Part shown: piece after piece, positions 2,869 to 58,914 of the stretch | Position numbering within the stretch: position 1 is the first letter of the stretch | How the letters are laid out: every line of letters begins with the position of its first letter | Source: Candidatus Moraniibacteriota bacterium | GTDB lineage: Bacteria > Patescibacteriota > Minisyncoccia > Moranbacterales > UBA1568 | DNA: 64,000 bases | NCBI GenBank assembly: GCA_963743885.1 | Contig: CAVURJ010000001.1 | Location: 502,321 to 566,320 of the forward strand | Direction of reading: 5' to 3' | Position numbers and translations under genes: made by a program | Notes under the pieces: model-generated | What the model was told of the DNA's origin: nothing | The model's input: the letters and a program-made list of their open reading frames with translations, nothing else | The model's database searches: none

Positions 2869-3285
2869 ATGAATAAATCATTCAAGGGTTTCACCCTCAT
2901 CGAACTCCTGATCGTCATCGCGATCATCGGCATTCTCGCCTCTATCGTGCTTGTCTCTCTTTCGAGCGCGCGTGAGAAGGCGAAGATTGCTGCGTTCAAA
3001 GCGCAGGTGCATTCGATGCAGGCTGCAGCTGTGTTGGCGTGCGATAGTGCCGTCTTGACTGCTGCGATACCGGGTGTCCCGGCGGGCGGTTTTGTCAACG
3101 CATATGCTGCGGGCGATATCCTTACCGGAACAGCAGCAACGGATTGTGGAACGACCGGAACGGGCAACTTTGATATTCAGTTGGAATCTGTCGAGATCGG
3201 CTCTTCAGCAGCTGCGACAGCGTGTGAAACAGCGAACATGACGCATGTTACTCCGACAGGAGCTACGTTCCCTGCAGGTTGCTAG
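2869..3285 (+). CDS. Type IV major pilin (prepilin with class III signal), copy 1
   Basis: Leader MNKSFKG followed by FTLIELLIVIAIIGILASIVLVSLSS (Gly at -1, Phe at +1, Glu at +5). Strong RBS aaaggaggtgagaagtt. C-terminus ends TFPAGC. 138 aa. Confidence 0.85.
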   Translation: MNKSFKGFTLIELLIVIAIIGILASIVLVSLSSAREKAKIAAFKAQVHSMQAAAVLACDSAVLTAAIPGVPAGGFVNAYAAGDILTGTAATDCGTTGTGNFDIQLESVEIGSSAAATACETANMTHVTPTGATFPAGC

Positions 3286-3373: not shown

Positions 3374-3796
3374 ATGTTGTATAACAAGATACAAAGGGGT
3401 TTCACCCTCATCGAACTCCTGATCGTCATCGCGATCATCGGCATTCTCGCCTCTATCGTGCTTGTCTCTCTTTCGAGCGCGCGTGAGAAGGCGAAGATTG
3501 CTGCGTTCAAAGCGCAGGTGCATTCGATGCAGGCTGCAGCTGTGTTGGCGTGCGATAGTGCCGTCTTGACTGCTGCGATACCGGGTGTCCCGGCGGGCGG
3601 TTTTGTCAACGCATATGCTGCGGGCGATATCCTTACCGGAACAGCAGCAACGGATTGTGGGGTGGTCGGGACAGGTAATTTCAATATTCAGTTGGAATCT
3701 GTCGAGATCGGCTCTTCAGCAGCTGCGACAGCGTGTGAAACAGCGAACATGACGCATGTTACTCCGACAGGAGCTACGTTCCCTGCAGGTTGCTAG
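3374..3796 (+). CDS. Type IV major pilin, copy 2 (near-identical tandem duplicate of copy 1)
   Basis: Leader MLYNKIQRG | FTLIELL. The mature region differs from copy 1 at only a few residues (DCGVVGTGNFNIQ vs DCGTTGTGNFDIQ). The flanking non-coding sequence is also duplicated. Confidence 0.85.
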   Translation: MLYNKIQRGFTLIELLIVIAIIGILASIVLVSLSSAREKAKIAAFKAQVHSMQAAAVLACDSAVLTAAIPGVPAGGFVNAYAAGDILTGTAATDCGVVGTGNFNIQLESVEIGSSAAATACETANMTHVTPTGATFPAGC

Positions 3797-7086: not shown

Positions 7087-7623
7087 ATGTTCGGGTTCAC
7101 TCTCATAGAGGTGATGGTGGCCATGTTTATCTTTCTTGTGCTTATGACGGCCGCGTCAGCTGTTTTTTCTGGGGCCATATTTGGTTACCGAAATGCCAGG
7201 GCCGTACAGAGAGATACTGAGAATGTTCAGTATGCGCTTAATGCCATGGCGAAGGAACTTCGAACAAGCTCTATCGTCGATTCAAGCTCCGTATTTGTAC
7301 GGTTTTATGATTATTCTCAAGAAGCCTGCATTTTATATAGGATTTCTGGGGGGAATCTTGAGGCAAGTAGGGTTTCACCAGCTGCGCCATCGACACTTTC
7401 TGTTGCTCAGAAGATTGCATTTTGTCAAGCAGCTATTCTTCCGGCGGCAGAGATAGTGAGTACGGGGGTAGTTACGGGTGTTTTTATTGTTATCTCGTCA
7501 AGTGCTACACCAGTGTCCGTTGGGAAAGTGACTGCATCCATACAGATAGCAGAAGGGCCGAAACATATCGCTCGGCTTCAGACGACGGTTTCGTTGCGTG
7601 ATTATGGTTTTACTGGCTTGTAG
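7087..7623 (+). CDS. Minor pilin / pseudopilin (PilW/GspJ-like)
   Basis: MFG | FTLIEVMVAMFIFLVLMTAASAVF. The ORF is open from 6964. The true start is uncertain between 6964 and 7087. Confidence 0.55.
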   Translation: MFGFTLIEVMVAMFIFLVLMTAASAVFSGAIFGYRNARAVQRDTENVQYALNAMAKELRTSSIVDSSSVFVRFYDYSQEACILYRISGGNLEASRVSPAAPSTLSVAQKIAFCQAAILPAAEIVSTGVVTGVFIVISSSATPVSVGKVTASIQIAEGPKHIARLQTTVSLRDYGFTGL

Positions 7624-7645: not shown

Positions 7646-9808
<2,163 letters not shown>

Positions 9809-54276: not shown

Positions 54277-54636
54277 TTATTTATTAACCCACCACTGTCT
54301 GAATTCGATCGCTTTTCCTTGATTATCCAGTTTTACATAATAAGCGCCCTTGGAGTCATGAATATTTCCCCTGGTATCTTTAAAGGAAAATTCGTATGAT
54401 GCGCTTCCTTCATTTTCTTTTGTGAGGAGCGTGTTTATTTCGAGCTTAAGAATGTCCTGATCAGAGACTTCTTTCCAAGCACCCTTTACTTCATCCAAGG
54501 AAGTGAGTGGAGGCTCGAAAGGATCTTCGTAGTATTGAAAATTTGAAGAAAGCAAACTATCGATATTCTCGATATCCTTATTGATCCAGATATCTTTCAA
54601 GGATCGGAACCAATTTTCAATTGTGGGGCTGTCCAT
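54277..54636 (-). CDS. Hypothetical protein (possibly NTF2/SnoaL-like fold)
   Basis: 119 aa. AT-rich. Confidence 0.35.
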   Translation of the reverse strand: MDSPTIENWFRSLKDIWINKDIENIDSLLSSNFQYYEDPFEPPLTSLDEVKGAWKEVSDQDILKLEINTLLTKENEGSASYEFSFKDTRGNIHDSKGAYYVKLDNQGKAIEFRQWWVNK

Positions 54637-54671
54637 AATATTTTGCTGTCCCTATGGGACGAAGTTGGAAC

Positions 54672-55169
54672 TTATTTAGGAAGCTTCTGATCATTAGGAT
54701 TGACACTTGAACTTGTGCTTGCAGTGATTTTTTTATTCGTTTCATCTTGATACTCTACAATACTCAAAATACTTTTAAACTCTTCACTTGTAACGATAGC
54801 CTCACCTAAAGCACAAATTTCTTTTAGGTCTTCTTCAAAAGAATCATCATAGATTTCCGTAAGAAGATCATGAACTACTTTATTTCTTTTAGCTCTAAAA
54901 TGATGTAGATCCTGTGCTAGTGTTCCCTTTATCAGTTTAGTTTTATTTAAAAACTCAATAAGTTTATAAAGACTATAATTAGAAACTTCAGTTCTGAGTT
55001 CATTTATAATTTCTGAATCCTTAATTTTATTCGTCTCAACAAAAAAAGAGAAATCGGCATGTAATTTTAAAAGACTCTCTATATAAGCACCTTGAACAAG
55101 AAAGGCTTCAAGGTATTGCTGTTTCAATATTGAACCTCGGATATGATTTGTTAATTCGATGTGTTTCAT
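54672..55169 (-). CDS. Hypothetical protein with HEPN-like Rx4H motif
   Basis: 165 aa. HHFRAKRNKVVHDLL contains R-x4-H. Strongly AT-rich. Confidence 0.4.
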   Translation of the reverse strand: MKHIELTNHIRGSILKQQYLEAFLVQGAYIESLLKLHADFSFFVETNKIKDSEIINELRTEVSNYSLYKLIEFLNKTKLIKGTLAQDLHHFRAKRNKVVHDLLTEIYDDSFEEDLKEICALGEAIVTSEEFKSILSIVEYQDETNKKITASTSSSVNPNDQKLPK

Positions 55170-55224
55170 AAGATTTGTTGGGGCTGTGGGATGGAATTGG
55201 AAAATATTTAAATGTTTTATCGTA

Positions 55225-55794
55225 CTAGATTTGAGTCAAAATTTTCTTAACTACCATCTTGGAAATTTCCAAGAACGGCCTTAGGTTCAGACAATAATAC
55301 TCATCTCTCTTTACTAAAACTGAATCCTGGTTATTTCCTGGATACAGCATCATACCAGGAGGCATGTGGCTATTATGAGTAAGCCTGTTTCTGTATTCTT
55401 TTTCTATTAGCCTGAGTTCAACTTCTGACAACTTTAAGTTATAGTACTCCGGATTATTTAATATTTGGAAGTGTTTTCCAATATCGTCTCCCCCTTTTTC
55501 GATTAGTGTTCCGACACTATCTACTATACATAGAAGTAATATTGCGGAGGGGTATCCATAACATCCTGCTTGATTAGGCCATCTGAAGTCTTTGCTTTTA
55601 TCAAAGTTGATACAATACTCTGAAACCTCAATCATCTCTTTTAAGGCTTCTTTAATCATCGAGTTGGTATTTCTGTGGATGGCCATAATATGTGTAGTGA
55701 TTTTCCTGCGGCCGGCCGCGGATGGGTGAGCCCAAAACCCATTCCAGAGTTTGGTATCTGTTACTAGAAAGTAAAACAAAAATATAGGTAACAT
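55225..55794 (-). CDS. Hypothetical protein, AT-rich
   Basis: 189 aa. Contains the GC-rich palindrome gcggccggccgcgg. The start may be the internal MAIHRNT. Downstream of promoter repeat R2. Confidence 0.35.
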   Translation of the reverse strand: MLPIFLFYFLVTDTKLWNGFWAHPSAAGRRKITTHIMAIHRNTNSMIKEALKEMIEVSEYCINFDKSKDFRWPNQAGCYGYPSAILLLCIVDSVGTLIEKGGDDIGKHFQILNNPEYYNLKLSEVELRLIEKEYRNRLTHNSHMPPGMMLYPGNNQDSVLVKRDEYYCLNLRPFLEISKMVVKKILTQI

Positions 55795-55796
55795 CT

Positions 55797-55890
55797 GAAA
55801 TATAGCCCTAAACCAGGCTTCTTACAAGCTTGGTATGGCCTGAAATCCTAAGCAACAAAAACGGTCTCGCGGCTGGTTTTTTTGTAATGG
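55797..55890 (-). promoter_or_regulatory. Repeat R2: second copy of the promoter/terminator cassette
   Basis: Nearly identical to 51855-51945. Confidence 0.5.
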
Positions 55891-55995
55891 GTATATCTAT
55901 CTAGTCTTAGAAATTAGCATAATACTCTCCGAAAAACAGAAAACCCACCGAAGCGGATTTTCCGTTGGTGGGTTTGTGGCGGTAGAGCTTTTGTC

Positions 55996-56457
55996 CTACA
56001 CGTATGTCTTCGCAAACGCATCGGCGTCGATCAGGTAGGGTTCGCCGCCCATGTTCGAGCCGTCTTCATCGCAGGTGTCGGCAATCATGCAGTTGGCGCC
56101 GCTGGTTTGCGGCGAACCCCATGAGGCCATGATCTCGATCGGCGTGCCGAACGGATTCACGATGGCTCTGCACGACCCCTTGGCCTTGTAGACATCGCCT
56201 TCGCCGGTCGTTTCGTAGCGATCGAAGAACTTCTTCTCGGAGATGATGTACTGCTCACCGGAAGGGTTCGTCACGATCCAGTCGCCCGCCTGTGCGGTGT
56301 TGGTCGTTTCCTTGGCGCCACCTTCGAGCGTCGTGGTGATTTCTTCGCCGACCACTGCGGGGCGAGCTTTCACCTGGCCCTGTTTCTTGAACACGGACGC
56401 GTTTGCGAGTGCAGCCATGATCTCGGGTGCCTTGCGTTCGATCTTTTTGAATGTCAT
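55996..56457 (-). CDS. Hypothetical protein
   Basis: Starts MTFKKIERKAPEIMAALANASVF after the RBS ggag. 153 aa. Cys-containing C-terminal half. Confidence 0.45.
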   Translation of the reverse strand: MTFKKIERKAPEIMAALANASVFKKQGQVKARPAVVGEEITTTLEGGAKETTNTAQAGDWIVTNPSGEQYIISEKKFFDRYETTGEGDVYKAKGSCRAIVNPFGTPIEIMASWGSPQTSGANCMIADTCDEDGSNMGGEPYLIDADAFAKTYV

Positions 56458-56552
56458 TTCATCGCTCCAATTTGGAAGTTGCGGGATGCCGACGAGATTC
56501 ATCGGACCTAATATGATAGCATATTTTATGGTATCGGTCAATAGCAAAAACG

Positions 56553-56576
56553 AAAAAGAGGCTTCAAAAAGCCTCT
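56553..56576 (-). terminator. Terminator hairpin downstream of the tRNA cluster
   Basis: aaaaagaggcttc-aaaaa-gcctct. On the minus strand it is followed by tttttcgttttt. Confidence 0.5.
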
Positions 56577-56598: not shown

Positions 56599-56696
56599 TT
56601 GCCCGGGCAGGGTTCGAACCTGCGCATAGCGGAGTCAAAGTCCGCTGCCTTACCCGCCTCGACTCGCGTCGACGCGAGGCGGGCCACTTGGCTATC
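56599..56696 (-). pseudogene. tRNA-Gln(UUG)-like fragment X with a 31-nt hairpin in the D-loop and no 5' acceptor strand
   Basis: Minus-strand agcc-aagtgg-[cccgcctcgcgtcgacgcgagtcgaggcggg]-taaggc-a-gcgga-ctttgac-tccgc-tatgc-gcagg-ttcgaac-cctgc-ccgggca-a. It has D, anticodon (UUG) and T arms plus the 3' acceptor strand, but no complementary 5' strand. Confidence 0.4.
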
Positions 56697-56706
56697 ATTA
56701 TTGATG

Positions 56707-56779
56707 TTGGGGAGGTAGGGATCGAACCTACGAAATGGAGCCTTCAAAGGGCCCTGCCTTACCACTTGGCTACTCCCCA
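56707..56779 (-). tRNA. tRNA-Gln (anticodon UUG)
   Basis: Minus strand tggggag-ta-gcca-agtggta-aggc-a-gggcc-cuuugaa-ggcuc-(c)atttc-gtagg-ttcgatc-cctac-ctcccca-a. Acceptor, T-arm and anticodon stem all pair. CCA is not encoded. Confidence 0.75.
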
Positions 56780-57030
56780 ATAATATTTTCTAGTATCTTT
56801 TTTAGTTGTTTTCGTCCTGATGCTGTTTTTAAGTAATGTTCTCTTTTTCTTGCTTCGGATAGAGTATCAAATGTTTCAGAATGTATCAATTGTAATGGCC
56901 TGCGGTGTATTGTCGCTTTGCAGTAACCGTCTGAGTGTTCTTTTATTCGTTTTTCTATGTTATCGGTTGATCCGGTATATGTTTTTTTATCTTTCTGACT
57001 GAGTAGAATATATACGAATCCCTTTGCCAT
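56770..57030 (-). CDS. GIY-YIG nuclease family protein (YhbQ/UPF0213-like, 86 aa)
   Basis: MAKGFVYILLSQKDKKTYTGSTDNIEKRIKEHSDGYCKATIHRRPLQLIHSETF...ARKREHYLK matches the GIY...YIG...R...H/E core. The last 3 codons and the stop (GGGGAGTAG) overlap the 5' end of tRNA-Gln. Confidence 0.75.
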   Translation of the reverse strand: MAKGFVYILLSQKDKKTYTGSTDNIEKRIKEHSDGYCKATIHRRPLQLIHSETFDTLSEARKREHYLKTASGRKQLKKILENIIGE

Positions 57031-57041
57031 AGCTTTTTGAT

Positions 57042-57159
57042 CCTGCCTTACCCGCCTCGCGCCAGCCTCGCCGAAAGAGTCTAGGCGGGTCGATGAGTCC
57101 GCGAGTCGAGGCGGGCCACTTGGCCTGTCGCGTCTCGTTTCGAGACGGACTACTCCCCA
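57042..57159 (-). pseudogene. Duplicated tRNA-Gln 5' segment (nt 1-28) interrupted by two perfect-hairpin insertions
   Basis: tggggagta-[gtccgtctcgaaacgagacgcgaca]-gccaagtgg-[cccgcctcg...cgaggcggg, 67 nt]-taaggcagg. Without the inserts this equals the first 28 nt of the intact tRNA-Gln. The D-loop insertion site and terminal arms match those of fragment X. Confidence 0.4.
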
Positions 57160-57249: not shown

Positions 57250-58914
57250 TTAGTTCTCCTGAACTAATTTTCCTCCAAGCATCTCCATCGCTTGGGCCAC
57301 GAGCGGATTTGCTGGGGCTGCCGCGGCGGGAGCGTTGTCGAGGATGATCCGGAGCCGTGTCTCGGACTCCAAGATGGTATCAAAGGCCTGCTTGAGCGTC
57401 AACCGGTTGGCCGGCTGGTCGAGGCGTTCTTTGTGGAAGGGGTATTTGACGGCGATGACGATCTCCATGCCTTCGGTCGAGACCGGACGAGCGGTGGAGA
57501 GGGCGAGCGAGAGCGAGGCGTTGAGTTCTTTGGCCTTCTCGAGGATCATGTGCCAGCGGTTGCTGATATGGGAGAAGTCAAAATTAGCTGCGTTAGCTTC
57601 CTTGGCTTCGCTAGCTTCTTTAGTTTTCGGAGAGGAGGGTTGAGATTCCTCGCTTGCACTCGGAATGACAGAAGAGGAAGCCTTGCTAGCTGCGTTAGCT
57701 TCACTAGCTTCTTTAGCTTCGTTAGGAGAAGAGAGAGCTGGGGAGGTGGCCGCAATCTTTCTTCCTTGGGCTGGCGTTTCTGGTTCTCTTGCCTCTTGCG
57801 TCTTGCCTCTTGCGTCATCTGCCAGTATCCGTACGATAGCGATCTCGAGCGGGAGCTCGGCGATGACCGAGGTCTTGCTCGCGGCCTGGGCGATCTGGAA
57901 TTCCTCGAGCATACGGACGATCGTACCCGGCGTGAAGAGCGATGCGAGCCGTTCGAGGTCCGCGCGTTGCTCATCGGTCAGGTGGTCCATATCAGAGAGG
58001 GCTGTCTTCGGGCTGGCCGAGACGAGCAGGAGCTCGCGGAGGAAGGAGAGAAGCGCGCCGCCAAAGACGGAGAGGTCAACGCCGTCTCCTGAGAGCTTGC
58101 CGACGAAGGAGAGGGCCGGATAGAGCTCATGTGCGCCCAAGAGCGAGACAAGCGCCGCGACATTCTCGCGCTTGGTGGTGCCGAGCACTTCGGCGACCTT
58201 CTCTTCTGTGATGAGTGTATTCCCGAGCGCCGCTACCTGGGTGAGGAGCGATTCGGCATCGCGCATGCCACCTTCGGCTGCGAGCGCAATCATCCGGAGA
58301 GCACCCGGCTCGATTTTCAGCTTCTCTTCTTTGGTAATCTTCGTGAGCTTGGCGATGATGTCCTTGACCGGGAAGCGGGAGAGGTCGAAACACTGGCAGC
58401 GGGAGACGATGGTATCTGGCACCTTGTGGAGCGCGGTAGTAGCAAGGATGAAGATGACGTGCGCTGGTGGCTCTTCGAGGGTCTTGAGGAGCGCGTTGAA
58501 AGCGCCGATCGAAAGCATGTGGACTTCGTCGATGATGTAGATCTTGTGTGACCCTAGGGTTGGTGGGAGCGAGATGGTCTCGCGGAGCTCGCGGATATTG
58601 TCGACGCCGGTGTGCGATGCGGCATCGATCTCGGTGACATCGAGGCTGCGTCCCTCGGCCATGAGGAGGCAGTGTGCGCATGTGCCGCACGGTTCCGCGG
58701 TCTTCTTGTCACGATGAGAACAGTTGACAGCTTTGGCGAAGAGGCGGGCGAGTGTGGTCTTGCCGGTGCCGCGCGGACCAGTGAGGAGATAGGCTTGGCC
58801 GACGCGTCCCATGCGGAGCGCGTTCGTCAGGGTCTTCACGATATGCTGCTGGCCGACGACATCGGCGAAGGTCTGCGGACGGTACTTGCGATACAAGGTG
58901 GTGGATGTAGTCAT
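57250..58914 (-). CDS. dnaX: DNA polymerase III subunit gamma/tau
   Basis: YRKYRPQTFADVVGQQHIVKTLTNAL...GPRGTGKTT, Zn-binding CGTCAHC. The C-terminal region carries low-complexity KEASEA-type inserts encoded by TAGCTTC repeats. Confidence 0.9.
   Translation of the reverse strand: MTTSTTLYRKYRPQTFADVVGQQHIVKTLTNALRMGRVGQAYLLTGPRGTGKTTLARLFAKAVNCSHRDKKTAEPCGTCAHCLLMAEGRSLDVTEIDAASHTGVDNIRELRETISLPPTLGSHKIYIIDEVHMLSIGAFNALLKTLEEPPAHVIFILATTALHKVPDTIVSRCQCFDLSRFPVKDIIAKLTKITKEEKLKIEPGALRMIALAAEGGMRDAESLLTQVAALGNTLITEEKVAEVLGTTKRENVAALVSLLGAHELYPALSFVGKLSGDGVDLSVFGGALLSFLRELLLVSASPKTALSDMDHLTDEQRADLERLASLFTPGTIVRMLEEFQIAQAASKTSVIAELPLEIAIVRILADDARGKTQEAREPETPAQGRKIAATSPALSSPNEAKEASEANAASKASSSVIPSASEESQPSSPKTKEASEAKEANAANFDFSHISNRWHMILEKAKELNASLSLALSTARPVSTEGMEIVIAVKYPFHKERLDQPANRLTLKQAFDTILESETRLRIILDNAPAAAAPANPLVAQAMEMLGGKLVQEN

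Follow-up and report, generated by a model that had tools for sequence, protein, structure and literature searches.

A small GIY-YIG nuclease gene with palindromic hairpins and tRNA fragments at a Moranbacteria tRNA-Gln gene

How does a bacterial tRNA gene come to stand between hairpin-interrupted pieces of tRNA sequence and to share its first nucleotides with a nuclease gene? The question is raised by a tRNA-Gln locus in a 64,000-nt stretch of DNA from a Candidatus Moraniibacteriota bacterium (contig CAVURJ010000001.1, positions 502,321 to 566,320; hereafter the window). Read along the minus strand behind dnaX, the locus contains a copy of the first part of tRNA-Gln that is split by two hairpins (fragment (i)), an open reading frame (ORF) for an 86-residue GIY-YIG nuclease, an intact tRNA-Gln(UUG), and a second tRNA-Gln(UUG)-like body with a third hairpin (fragment (iv)). 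An earlier note, made from the sequence alone, had described these parts, and all of them lie on the minus strand where it placed them; of its hairpin lengths, 31 nt in fragment (iv) is correct, and the 25 and 67 nt given for fragment (i) are 26 and 65 nt. We think it probable, if well short of certain, that a host tRNA-Gln(UUG) gene was invaded here by a minimal selfish cassette of an Ssn-like nuclease gene and its hairpins. This reading draws on the anatomy of the locus, on empty sites in relatives, on selection acting on the ORF and the fragments, and on the association of nuclease, tRNA, tRNA fragments and hairpins that we observe across the family.

The tRNA-Gln locus and its counterparts in relatives

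The most conspicuous feature of the locus is the overlap between the nuclease gene and the intact tRNA. As the earlier note had seen, the stop codon of the ORF lies inside the tRNA: the TAG occupies tRNA nt 8–10, and the end of the ORF overlaps the first 10 nt of the gene. This tRNA is the only one called by ARAGORN in the window. Fragment (iv) comprises an anticodon arm (UUG), a T arm, a 3′ acceptor strand (CCGGGCA) and a discriminator, and matches the Rfam tRNA family at 33.5 bits (gathering score 29) over model positions 9–63. Both D-loop hairpins have the same outer stem, CCCGCCTCG/CGAGGCGGG, again as previously claimed, and we refer to them as type-A elements. The 65-nt insert of fragment (i) holds a second, degenerate type-A copy (CCCGCCTAG...CGAGGCTGG, 57089–57062), forming a hairpin within a hairpin. 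The window contains the string CCCGCCTCG 6 times, where 0.79 occurrences are expected; four of the six are at the tRNA-Gln locus, and type-A hairpins are found in the window at this locus only. Because of this excess, and because the same layout recurs in an independent assembly (L001), the arrangement is not a product of chance. A search of Rfam with E values up to 10 returned no family for the hairpins of the locus and no intron family.

By its DnaX relatives the window belongs to Candidatus Moranbacteria/Moraniibacteriota. Five related dnaX loci (L001, L205, L206, L207 and L208) were compared with the window. In L207 (DnaX 67% identical) and L208 (64%), dnaX is followed by a spacer and a single clean tRNA-Gln(UUG), and the nuclease gene is absent. 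It is also absent from L205 (76%), where the upstream spacer is common with L001 and a clean tRNA-Gln starts at the position homologous to the start of fragment (i). Fragment (i) therefore represents the native 5′ part of the host gene, with the remainder after about nt 28 inserted. L206 (73%) carries an intact tRNA-Gln(UUG) of a second type (TGCCCGG...CCGGGCA) whose body is identical to that of the window fragment (iv); because of this intact counterpart, fragment (iv) can be assigned as the remnant of a second tRNA-Gln gene. ARAGORN calls a tRNA once the type-2 5′ end is restored to the fragment. The conserved site is thus empty in L205, L207 and L208 and occupied in the window and L001, in line with the mobile-element activity at a tRNA gene that had been suggested earlier.

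L001 (DnaX 75%) contains the full arrangement: fragment (i) with both hairpins, an ORF with 86% amino acid identity, and the intact tRNA. Downstream come a fragment (iv) with the same body as the intact tRNA and a third unit, of type 2 and degenerate, in which the anticodon loop has 6 nt and the T stem a mismatch. Fragment (i) of L001 has a plain 31-nt element where the window has the 65-nt insert, and this element is identical to the 31-nt element of the window fragment (iv). The window fragment (iv) is best read as the product of a deletion that would have fused the 5′ part of an L001-type fragment (iv) to a type-2 remnant.

The comparison with L001 also gives an estimate of age and selection. 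The two nuclease ORFs differ by dN = 0.067 and dS = 1.17 (dN/dS 0.057), values that point to strong purifying selection, and the first 350 codons of dnaX have dS = 0.71. The cassette was therefore already present when the two lineages split. Neutral DNA at such divergence is expected to retain about 40–55% identity. Fragment (i) up to the hairpin loop is identical at 50 of 52 nt, including 24 of the 26 nt of the 26-nt hairpin, as are 39 of the 40 nt that make up the spacer and the 5′ part of fragment (iv); the spacer between dnaX and fragment (i) is partly unalignable. The 26-nt hairpin was found only here and in L001 when the rest of the window and 213 loci were searched. Since the ORF has a dN/dS of about 0.06 and the noncoding fragments have hardly changed over a dS of at least 0.7, the locus is not a neutral scar. 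The earlier note had held that a single clean tRNA-Gln and an unlinked yhbQ in related genomes, with no fragments, would reduce the arrangement to a lineage-specific scar. The outcome is mixed: clean sites do exist, yet selection has preserved the arrangement in two lineages that have diverged from each other, and it belongs to a widespread class.

The nuclease, its family and the type-A element

The encoded protein matches the GIY-YIG family of Pfam (PF01541) as one domain spanning residues 3–73 (59.1 bits against a cut-off of 22.6; E = 5e-16). In an alignment of 17 sequences Tyr7, Tyr18, His32 and Glu64 are invariant and Arg28 nearly so; we take these five residues to be the equivalents of Tyr6, Tyr17, Arg27, His31 and Glu75 of I-TevI. 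The AF2 model (pLDDT 91.5) is consistent with the β-β-α-β-α GIY-YIG fold, and Foldseek places the UPF0213 structure 1zg2 closest, followed by Slx1, At-HIGLE and the I-TevI catalytic domain. A sequence search of the PDB returned only the UPF0213 proteins 1ywl (profile E = 5e-12) and 1zg2 (1e-11). In a family profile comparison, in which an SRM-flanked Azospirillum homologue served as stand-in for Nm SsnA, YazA of Bacillus subtilis scored 55 bits (40% identity) and the Azospirillum protein 45 bits (36% identical to the window protein). The YhbQ/UPF0213-type assignment proposed earlier is thus reasonable by sequence, YazA score and fold, and by these comparisons the clade of the window protein appears equidistant from Ssn and UPF0213. 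Exact-sequence look-ups of the window GIY-YIG and DnaX proteins found nothing on record, PADLOC and PHROGs gave weak generic GIY-YIG matches only, and a search of 2.9 million viral contigs yielded just two weak relatives. The ORF has a GC content well below the 49–58% of its flanks, and in this respect looks foreign.

Homologue searches gave 85 loci in all. A same-strand tRNA adjoins the ORF in at least 57 of them, many of the others being contig ends, against a background of 0.11 tRNA per kb. Protein clades track both the identity of the tRNA and the side on which it lies (Ser upstream, Gly upstream, Gln downstream, etc.). Among loci with a downstream tRNA, about 20 carry a copy of its 5′ part ahead of the ORF; the copy reaches nt 19–40 and contains a GC-rich hairpin, inserted after nt 6, 8, 9, 11, 16–18, 20 or 21; throughout the Gln clade of the window the hairpin lies at nt 18/19. 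The layout of partial tRNA with hairpin, GIY-YIG gene and intact tRNA occurs in dozens of loci with several tRNA identities, in uncultured bacteria, and the earlier idea of a tRNA-embedded element thus gains in breadth. Mirror-image classes, in which the tRNA is upstream, have a 3′ tRNA fragment downstream of the ORF, and hairpins made of the tRNA 3′ end and its complement on both sides of it. Strong structure in the approximately 110 nt before the ORF is seen in 74% of loci, compared with 7–14% of control segments (Mann-Whitney p = 2e-20). The hairpin family follows the protein clade and not the tRNA identity: two Gln clades differ in the hairpin they carry, and a single type is common to Gln, Asp, Leu, Asn and Met loci. 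In L005 the unit is doubled in tandem, (i)-ORF-(i)-ORF. L002 combines a type-2 fragment (i) with a type-1 intact tRNA, so the whole tRNA either travels with the ORF or is co-converted.

Several single loci add detail. In the Gly and Ser clades (L020, L031, L038, L040, L059, L080) the palindromes before the ORF combine the acceptor 3′ end of the tRNA with its complement (e.g. CACCCGCTC...GAGCGAGG; TGGCGAGATCTCGCCA; GGCGGATCCGCC), and the block of tRNA 3′ end plus hairpins is present on both sides of the ORF. In L003 (1–2100) a tRNA-Gly, a GIY-YIG gene and a tRNA-Gln are directly followed by a large serine recombinase gene, which may belong to a larger integrated element on the same tRNA cluster.

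The type-A element has a distribution of its own. An exact-pattern scan (CCCGCCTCG N(8-38) AGTCGAGGCGGG, one genome per species) found more than 120 stretches, several per Moranbacteria genome, in Patescibacteria, Planctomycetota, uncultured Gammaproteobacteria, Bdellovibrionales, Elusimicrobia and one archaeon. A GIY-YIG gene lies within -300/+900 nt of only 7 of the 132 occurrences, and about 15 are located within tRNA-like sequence. In 869 kb around type-A hairpins, most of the approximately 10 GIY-YIG genes are within about 400 nt of a hairpin, and in 319 kb of GIY-YIG loci the hairpin is found only at the ORF and tRNA units. The length is a multiple of 3 in 93/132 cases, and 77/132 lie in open frames of at least 150 codons. 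Pfam confirms SecA, NAD-dependent ligase and topoisomerase I as in-frame hosts; a UvrA-like host has an ABC_tran match only. Type-A also nests in other hairpins, including itself, as in the 65-nt insert of the window. Because it is found across phyla, in multiple copies and in-frame in protein genes, type-A can be regarded as an independent palindromic mini-element. It resembles the Rickettsia palindromic elements (RPE), reportedly described by Ogata et al. in 2000, and its sequence distribution looks like that of a selfish RPE-like element common to several phyla.

Among loci L085–L204, in-frame palindromes of 31–45 nt were seen in SecA (L094), a UvrA-like protein (L102), NAD-ligase (L176), topoisomerase I (L185) and Pol I (L150), where they translate to PASTRG..STRGG-like peptides. 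Hosts of such palindromes include Patescibacteria, Planctomycetota and uncultured Gammaproteobacteria. In L123, L129, L139, L162 and L197, type-A palindromes occupy the loops of SRM/NTS-like hairpins, e.g. tgtcattccggact[HP]tgatccggaatccagg; the two families of hairpin nest in one another.

Possible origins of the arrangement

In the explanation that we favour, the cassette would consist of the GIY-YIG gene and the GC-rich hairpin elements, seated after about tRNA nt 28. The host would keep its tRNA because a complete tRNA-Gln copy directly follows the ORF, overlapping its stop codon. The displaced native 5′ part would remain upstream as the leader of the nuclease gene, and downstream a decayed second tRNA-Gln gene would have been fused to a duplicated segment of D arm plus hairpin. 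By analogy with Ssn, the nuclease may bind and cut single-stranded DNA (ssDNA) beside its cognate hairpins; the breaks would stimulate recombination in the tRNA sequence, a short and universally conserved homology, giving rise to the insertion and the partial duplications. The hairpins may in turn ‘poison’ the direct tRNA repeats: if the ORF were lost by recombination, a hairpin-disrupted tRNA would be left, and the cassette would hence be locked in. The overlap of stop codon and tRNA would couple expression of the nuclease to processing of the tRNA.

The model for this activity is the Ssn family, 94-residue single-domain GIY-YIG nucleases (cd10448) that cut ssDNA beside a hairpin repeat, NTS/SRM, found both at the flanks of the nuclease gene itself and dispersed in the genome (Chenal et al. 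2025, Nat Commun, PMC11893778). The authors remark on the layout of repeat, gene and repeat, like that of an insertion sequence; the word ‘tRNA’ is absent from the text of the paper (PMC11893778). The window gene is likewise small, single-domain and hairpin-flanked, its hairpin is multi-copy in genomes, and hairpin variants go with nuclease variants in both systems; cleavage by the window protein is proposed by analogy. The window gene differs from the Ssn genes in its setting within a tRNA gene, parts of which are duplicated, and in interlocking with an intact tRNA. The SRM pattern HGTCWYN(0-2)YYVSBRHN(0-5)WNVSBRGN(0-2)RNCYNB has no match at the window locus and 6 in 313 kb of 84 related loci, none of them adjoining the nuclease ORF. 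On the control side, four canonical SRMs flank the Azospirillum plasmid GIY-YIG gene (4 flanking matches in control locus L212). The 26-nt hairpin has a GTC-palindrome-C shape like that of Ssn-related motifs, yet does not match their search pattern.

SRM-like sequences also occur in dnaX itself. The L001 gene contains two canonical SRMs in-frame in a variable linker (7350–7377 and 7725–7752; TGTCATTCCCGCGCAGGCGGGAATCCAG, peptide VIPAQAGIQ), and the window gene has a degenerate copy at about 57628–57678 on the minus strand (TGTCATTCCGAGTGCAAGCGAGGAATC, peptide SVIPSASEES). Several SVIPS-type copies are present in the L206 DnaX.

A number of results weigh against an invading Ssn-like cassette. 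The window hairpins (CCCGCCTCG...AGTCGAGGCGGG and GTCCGTCTCGAAACGAGACG) do not fit the SRM pattern, and the protein is no closer to the SRM-flanked homologue (45 bits) than to UPF0213/YazA (55 bits). It is a bare catalytic domain, without a DNA-binding domain. Most type-A hairpins are solo, inside protein genes and far from nuclease genes, and the correlation between hairpin and protein clade is confounded by host phylogeny. No near-identical ORFs in differing contexts, which would mark recent mobility, were verified; between the window and L001 inheritance was vertical, since dnaX has diverged no more than the ORF. A domesticated gene, too, would be retained for long under strong purifying selection. 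The conserved 37-nt block upstream of fragment (i) (TAATTTTAGTATCTGGTATCTAGTATTTCGTAGTTAG) may hold the promoter of the tRNA operon, and a scan for the sigma-70 consensus upstream of fragment (i), this block included, found no promoter match.

A rival view is that the locus is a domesticated operon: nuclease and tRNA would be transcribed together, the nuclease serving the host in the maintenance of tRNA or nucleic acids, and the hairpin-bearing fragments would be a conserved regulatory leader and trailer and not the ends of a mobile element. The leader could be an mRNA-stabilizing 5′ structure, or a decoy competing with tRNA folding and RNase P cleavage. The dN/dS of 0.06 and the conservation of noncoding fragments over dS of at least 0.7 are what such an operon would show, the hairpin end always lies 7–31 nt before the start codon, and the overlap of stop codon and tRNA occurs in several loci. 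The setting of B. subtilis yazA between the genes for a tRNA methyltransferase and rsmI, and the near absence of the family from viral contigs, also speak for this view. We nevertheless consider it unlikely. The gene is patchy among close relatives, which have clean sites, and its low GC looks foreign; direct tRNA repeats are signatures of insertion, tandem copies occur (L005), and the same hairpins act as selfish insertions elsewhere. Long-range RNA pairings between fragments, predicted for L001, have no counterpart in the window. One leader function can be assessed at the end of fragment (i), where TAAGGCAGG holds a possible Shine-Dalgarno sequence, AGGA: a role as ribosome-binding site is plausible in the window and L001 by sequence, and fails in other family members, in which the distance to the ATG is 7–31 nt.

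A bolder form of the cassette reading, which we hold to be quite unlikely, makes nuclease gene, hairpins and short tRNA arms a self-propagating element that targets tRNA genes through ssDNA. The nuclease would cut at the hairpin, the tRNA arms of 10–20 nt would serve as portable homology or guides for copy-insertion into the cognate tRNA gene of any genome, and the spare tRNA would be carried as a ‘licence’. The same nuclease family would then be what spreads the 31–45-nt in-frame palindromes in housekeeping proteins across phyla.

Could the parts instead be unrelated scars? A one-off insertion or duplication may have left neutral tRNA debris, which an independent palindrome then colonized because a compact genome offers little other neutral sequence; nuclease and hairpin would have no functional link. 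Type-A is indeed independent, cross-phylum, multi-copy and mostly far from GIY-YIG genes, and insert positions vary. Moreover, hairpin-bearing partial tRNAs (Glu, Val and Leu) stand beside the same intact tRNA without a GIY-YIG gene in L108, L149 and L171; these units may be remnants after loss of the ORF or reflect an independent effect of the palindrome. Such debris is nonetheless an improbable source of the locus, as conservation of the fragments, and of the unique 26-nt hairpin, far exceeds the neutral expectation. Hairpins also lie upstream of the ORF in 74% of loci in all clades, the hairpin type tracks the protein clade, and in the 319 kb of GIY-YIG loci type-A is found only beside ORF and tRNA units.

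The idea that the hairpins are small introns, or that fragments (i) and (iv) are halves of a split, permuted or trans-spliced tRNA-Gln, a possibility raised in the earlier note, can be dismissed as highly improbable: although fragment (iv) retains canonical D, anticodon and T arms (Rfam 33.5 bits) and in L001 the 5′ strand of (i) is complementary to the 3′ strand of (iv) and pairs with it in the minimum-free-energy fold, the acceptor strands of the window (TGGGGAG of (i) and CCGGGCA of (iv)) pair at 3 of 7 positions, ARAGORN rejects both fragment (iv) without its hairpin and an (i)+(iv) chimera, Rfam gives no intron family, the two pieces are separated by an intact tRNA-Gln with an identical anticodon, the genes of relatives are clean, L001 has a degenerate third unit, and the hairpin inserts range from nt 6 to nt 21 among loci. 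On the acceptor mismatch, the ARAGORN tests and the clean relatives, the split, permuted and trans-spliced forms were rejected.

Set beside known systems, the locus shows partial likenesses. The UPF0213/YhbQ/YazA proteins (1zg2, 1ywl) and Slx1 are the best sequence and fold matches, with the same size and catalytic motif, but UPF0213/YhbQ/YazA genes are housekeeping-like single copies, unlike the window gene; yazA in B. subtilis sits between trmNF, encoding the tRNA methyltransferase, and rsmI, and no tRNA fragments or hairpin repeats were seen there. Free-standing GIY-YIG homing genes include those for I-TevI and the phage T4 Seg proteins, with SegB in a tRNA gene cluster; these homing enzymes are of 200–250 residues and have a separate DNA-binding domain. 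The window gene shares with them a seat in a conserved gene, presence and absence in relatives, foreign composition and retained host function, but its product lacks the DNA-binding domain, and duplication of the target and insertion of hairpins are not Seg or Tev traits. A phage-borne homing gene was rejected, as the family is nearly absent from viral contigs (two weak relatives among 2.9 million).

Type-A resembles the RPE in being a short palindrome that is in-frame in SecA, ligase and topoisomerase I, that occurs in RNA-gene remnants and whose copies nest; it is far shorter (31–45 nt) and conserved at the nucleotide level across phyla. Its association with a small nuclease gene recalls REP/RAYT, but the enzyme partner is a GIY-YIG protein and not a Y1 transposase as in REP/RAYT and IS200/IS605. 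Integrase attachment sites also involve insertion inside a tRNA gene and a partial duplicate that restores the intact tRNA, whereas the payload here is a single 261-nt ORF and the duplicated part is the 5′ end (about nt 1–28), not the 3′ end; duplication by an integrase was rejected, no recombinase gene being present from dnaX to the downstream PGDYG gene. Group I introns interrupt tRNA genes of Patescibacteria, sometimes with endonuclease ORFs, and GIY-YIG is unmentioned in that account (PMC13011429). The phylum and the interrupted tRNA gene are the same, but the window has no intron RNA core, and its inserts are hairpins of 26–65 nt in the D-arm region, not in the anticodon loop. The searchable literature gave no account of GIY-YIG genes with tRNA fragments and hairpins; the embedding in a tRNA gene and the in-frame palindrome found across phyla both seem to be undescribed there.

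Coordinates, neighbouring genes and implications

Table 1. Features of the tRNA-Gln locus, in minus-strand order (window coordinates)
Feature	Position	Strand	Sequence	Remarks
Conserved 37-nt intergenic block and dnaX stop codon	57216..57252	-	TAATTTTAGTATCTGGTATCTAGTATTTCGTAGTTAG	Nearly identical in L001; next ~50 nt diverged
Fragment (i), whole	57159-57042	-		About nt 1–28 of tRNA-Gln, split by 26-nt and 65-nt hairpins
Fragment (i), nt 1–9	57151..57159	-	TGGGGAGTA	Exact match to intact tRNA-Gln
26-nt hairpin after tRNA nt 9	57125..57150	-	GTCCGTCTCGAAACGAGACGCGACAG	Folds at -14.3 kcal/mol
Fragment (i), nt 10–18	57116..57124	-	GCCAAGTGG	
65-nt D-loop insert	57051..57115	-		Type-A element; outer stem CCCGCCTCG/CGAGGCGGG
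Fragment (i), nt 19–27	57042..57050	-	TAAGGCAGG	Ends at cassette junction
11-nt linker	57031..57041	-		From tRNA fragment to ATG
Nuclease ORF	56770..57030	-		86-aa single-domain GIY-YIG (UPF0213/Ssn-like); 261 nt, 34% GC
Intact tRNA-Gln(UUG)	56706..56779	-		ARAGORN call; Rfam 60 bits
11-nt spacer, intact tRNA to fragment (iv)	56695..56705	-		12/13 nt conserved with L001
Fragment (iv), whole	56694-56599	-		Without 5′ acceptor strand
Fragment (iv), nt 8–18	56684..56694	-	TAGCCAAGTGG	No 5′ acceptor strand upstream
31-nt D-loop element of fragment (iv)	56653..56683	-		Type-A element
Second (‘type 2’) tRNA-Gln(UUG) body	56599..56652	-		nt 19–73; pseudogene remnant
Terminator-like hairpin and T-run	56557..56576	-		Intrinsic type; closes the unit

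The product of the gene downstream of the locus (55996–56547, minus strand) has a PGDYG domain (PF14083) and weakly resembles phage protein families of unknown function. Beyond it, an island of 30–38% GC (54300–55900) contains two minus-strand ORFs of 189 and 165 residues without a family match. In the 165-residue protein there is an R-x4-H motif (RNKVVH), along with a weak match to CARF_HEPN, and the two ORFs may form a small toxin or defence pair, to judge from sequence. Elsewhere in the window, two identical 31-mers (CGTCTTGACTGCTGCGATACCGGGTGTCCCG) at 3051–3081 and 3562–3592 lie 511 nt apart, which indicates a direct repeat or a duplicated segment.

If the cassette reading is correct, Ssn-type modules would not be merely scattered repeats that modulate transformation; they would also exist as compact cassettes in essential tRNA genes. 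Such a cassette would persist by carrying a replacement tRNA and interlocking with it, a minimal strategy for the highly reduced genomes of Patescibacteria. It would account for many of the ‘tRNA fragments’ and the missed or odd tRNA calls in metagenome-assembled genomes, and the module would be tied to a cross-phylum palindrome that enters SecA, ligase, topoisomerase and other core proteins in-frame. The family would also offer natural pairs of nuclease and hairpin with differing specificity for ssDNA tools.

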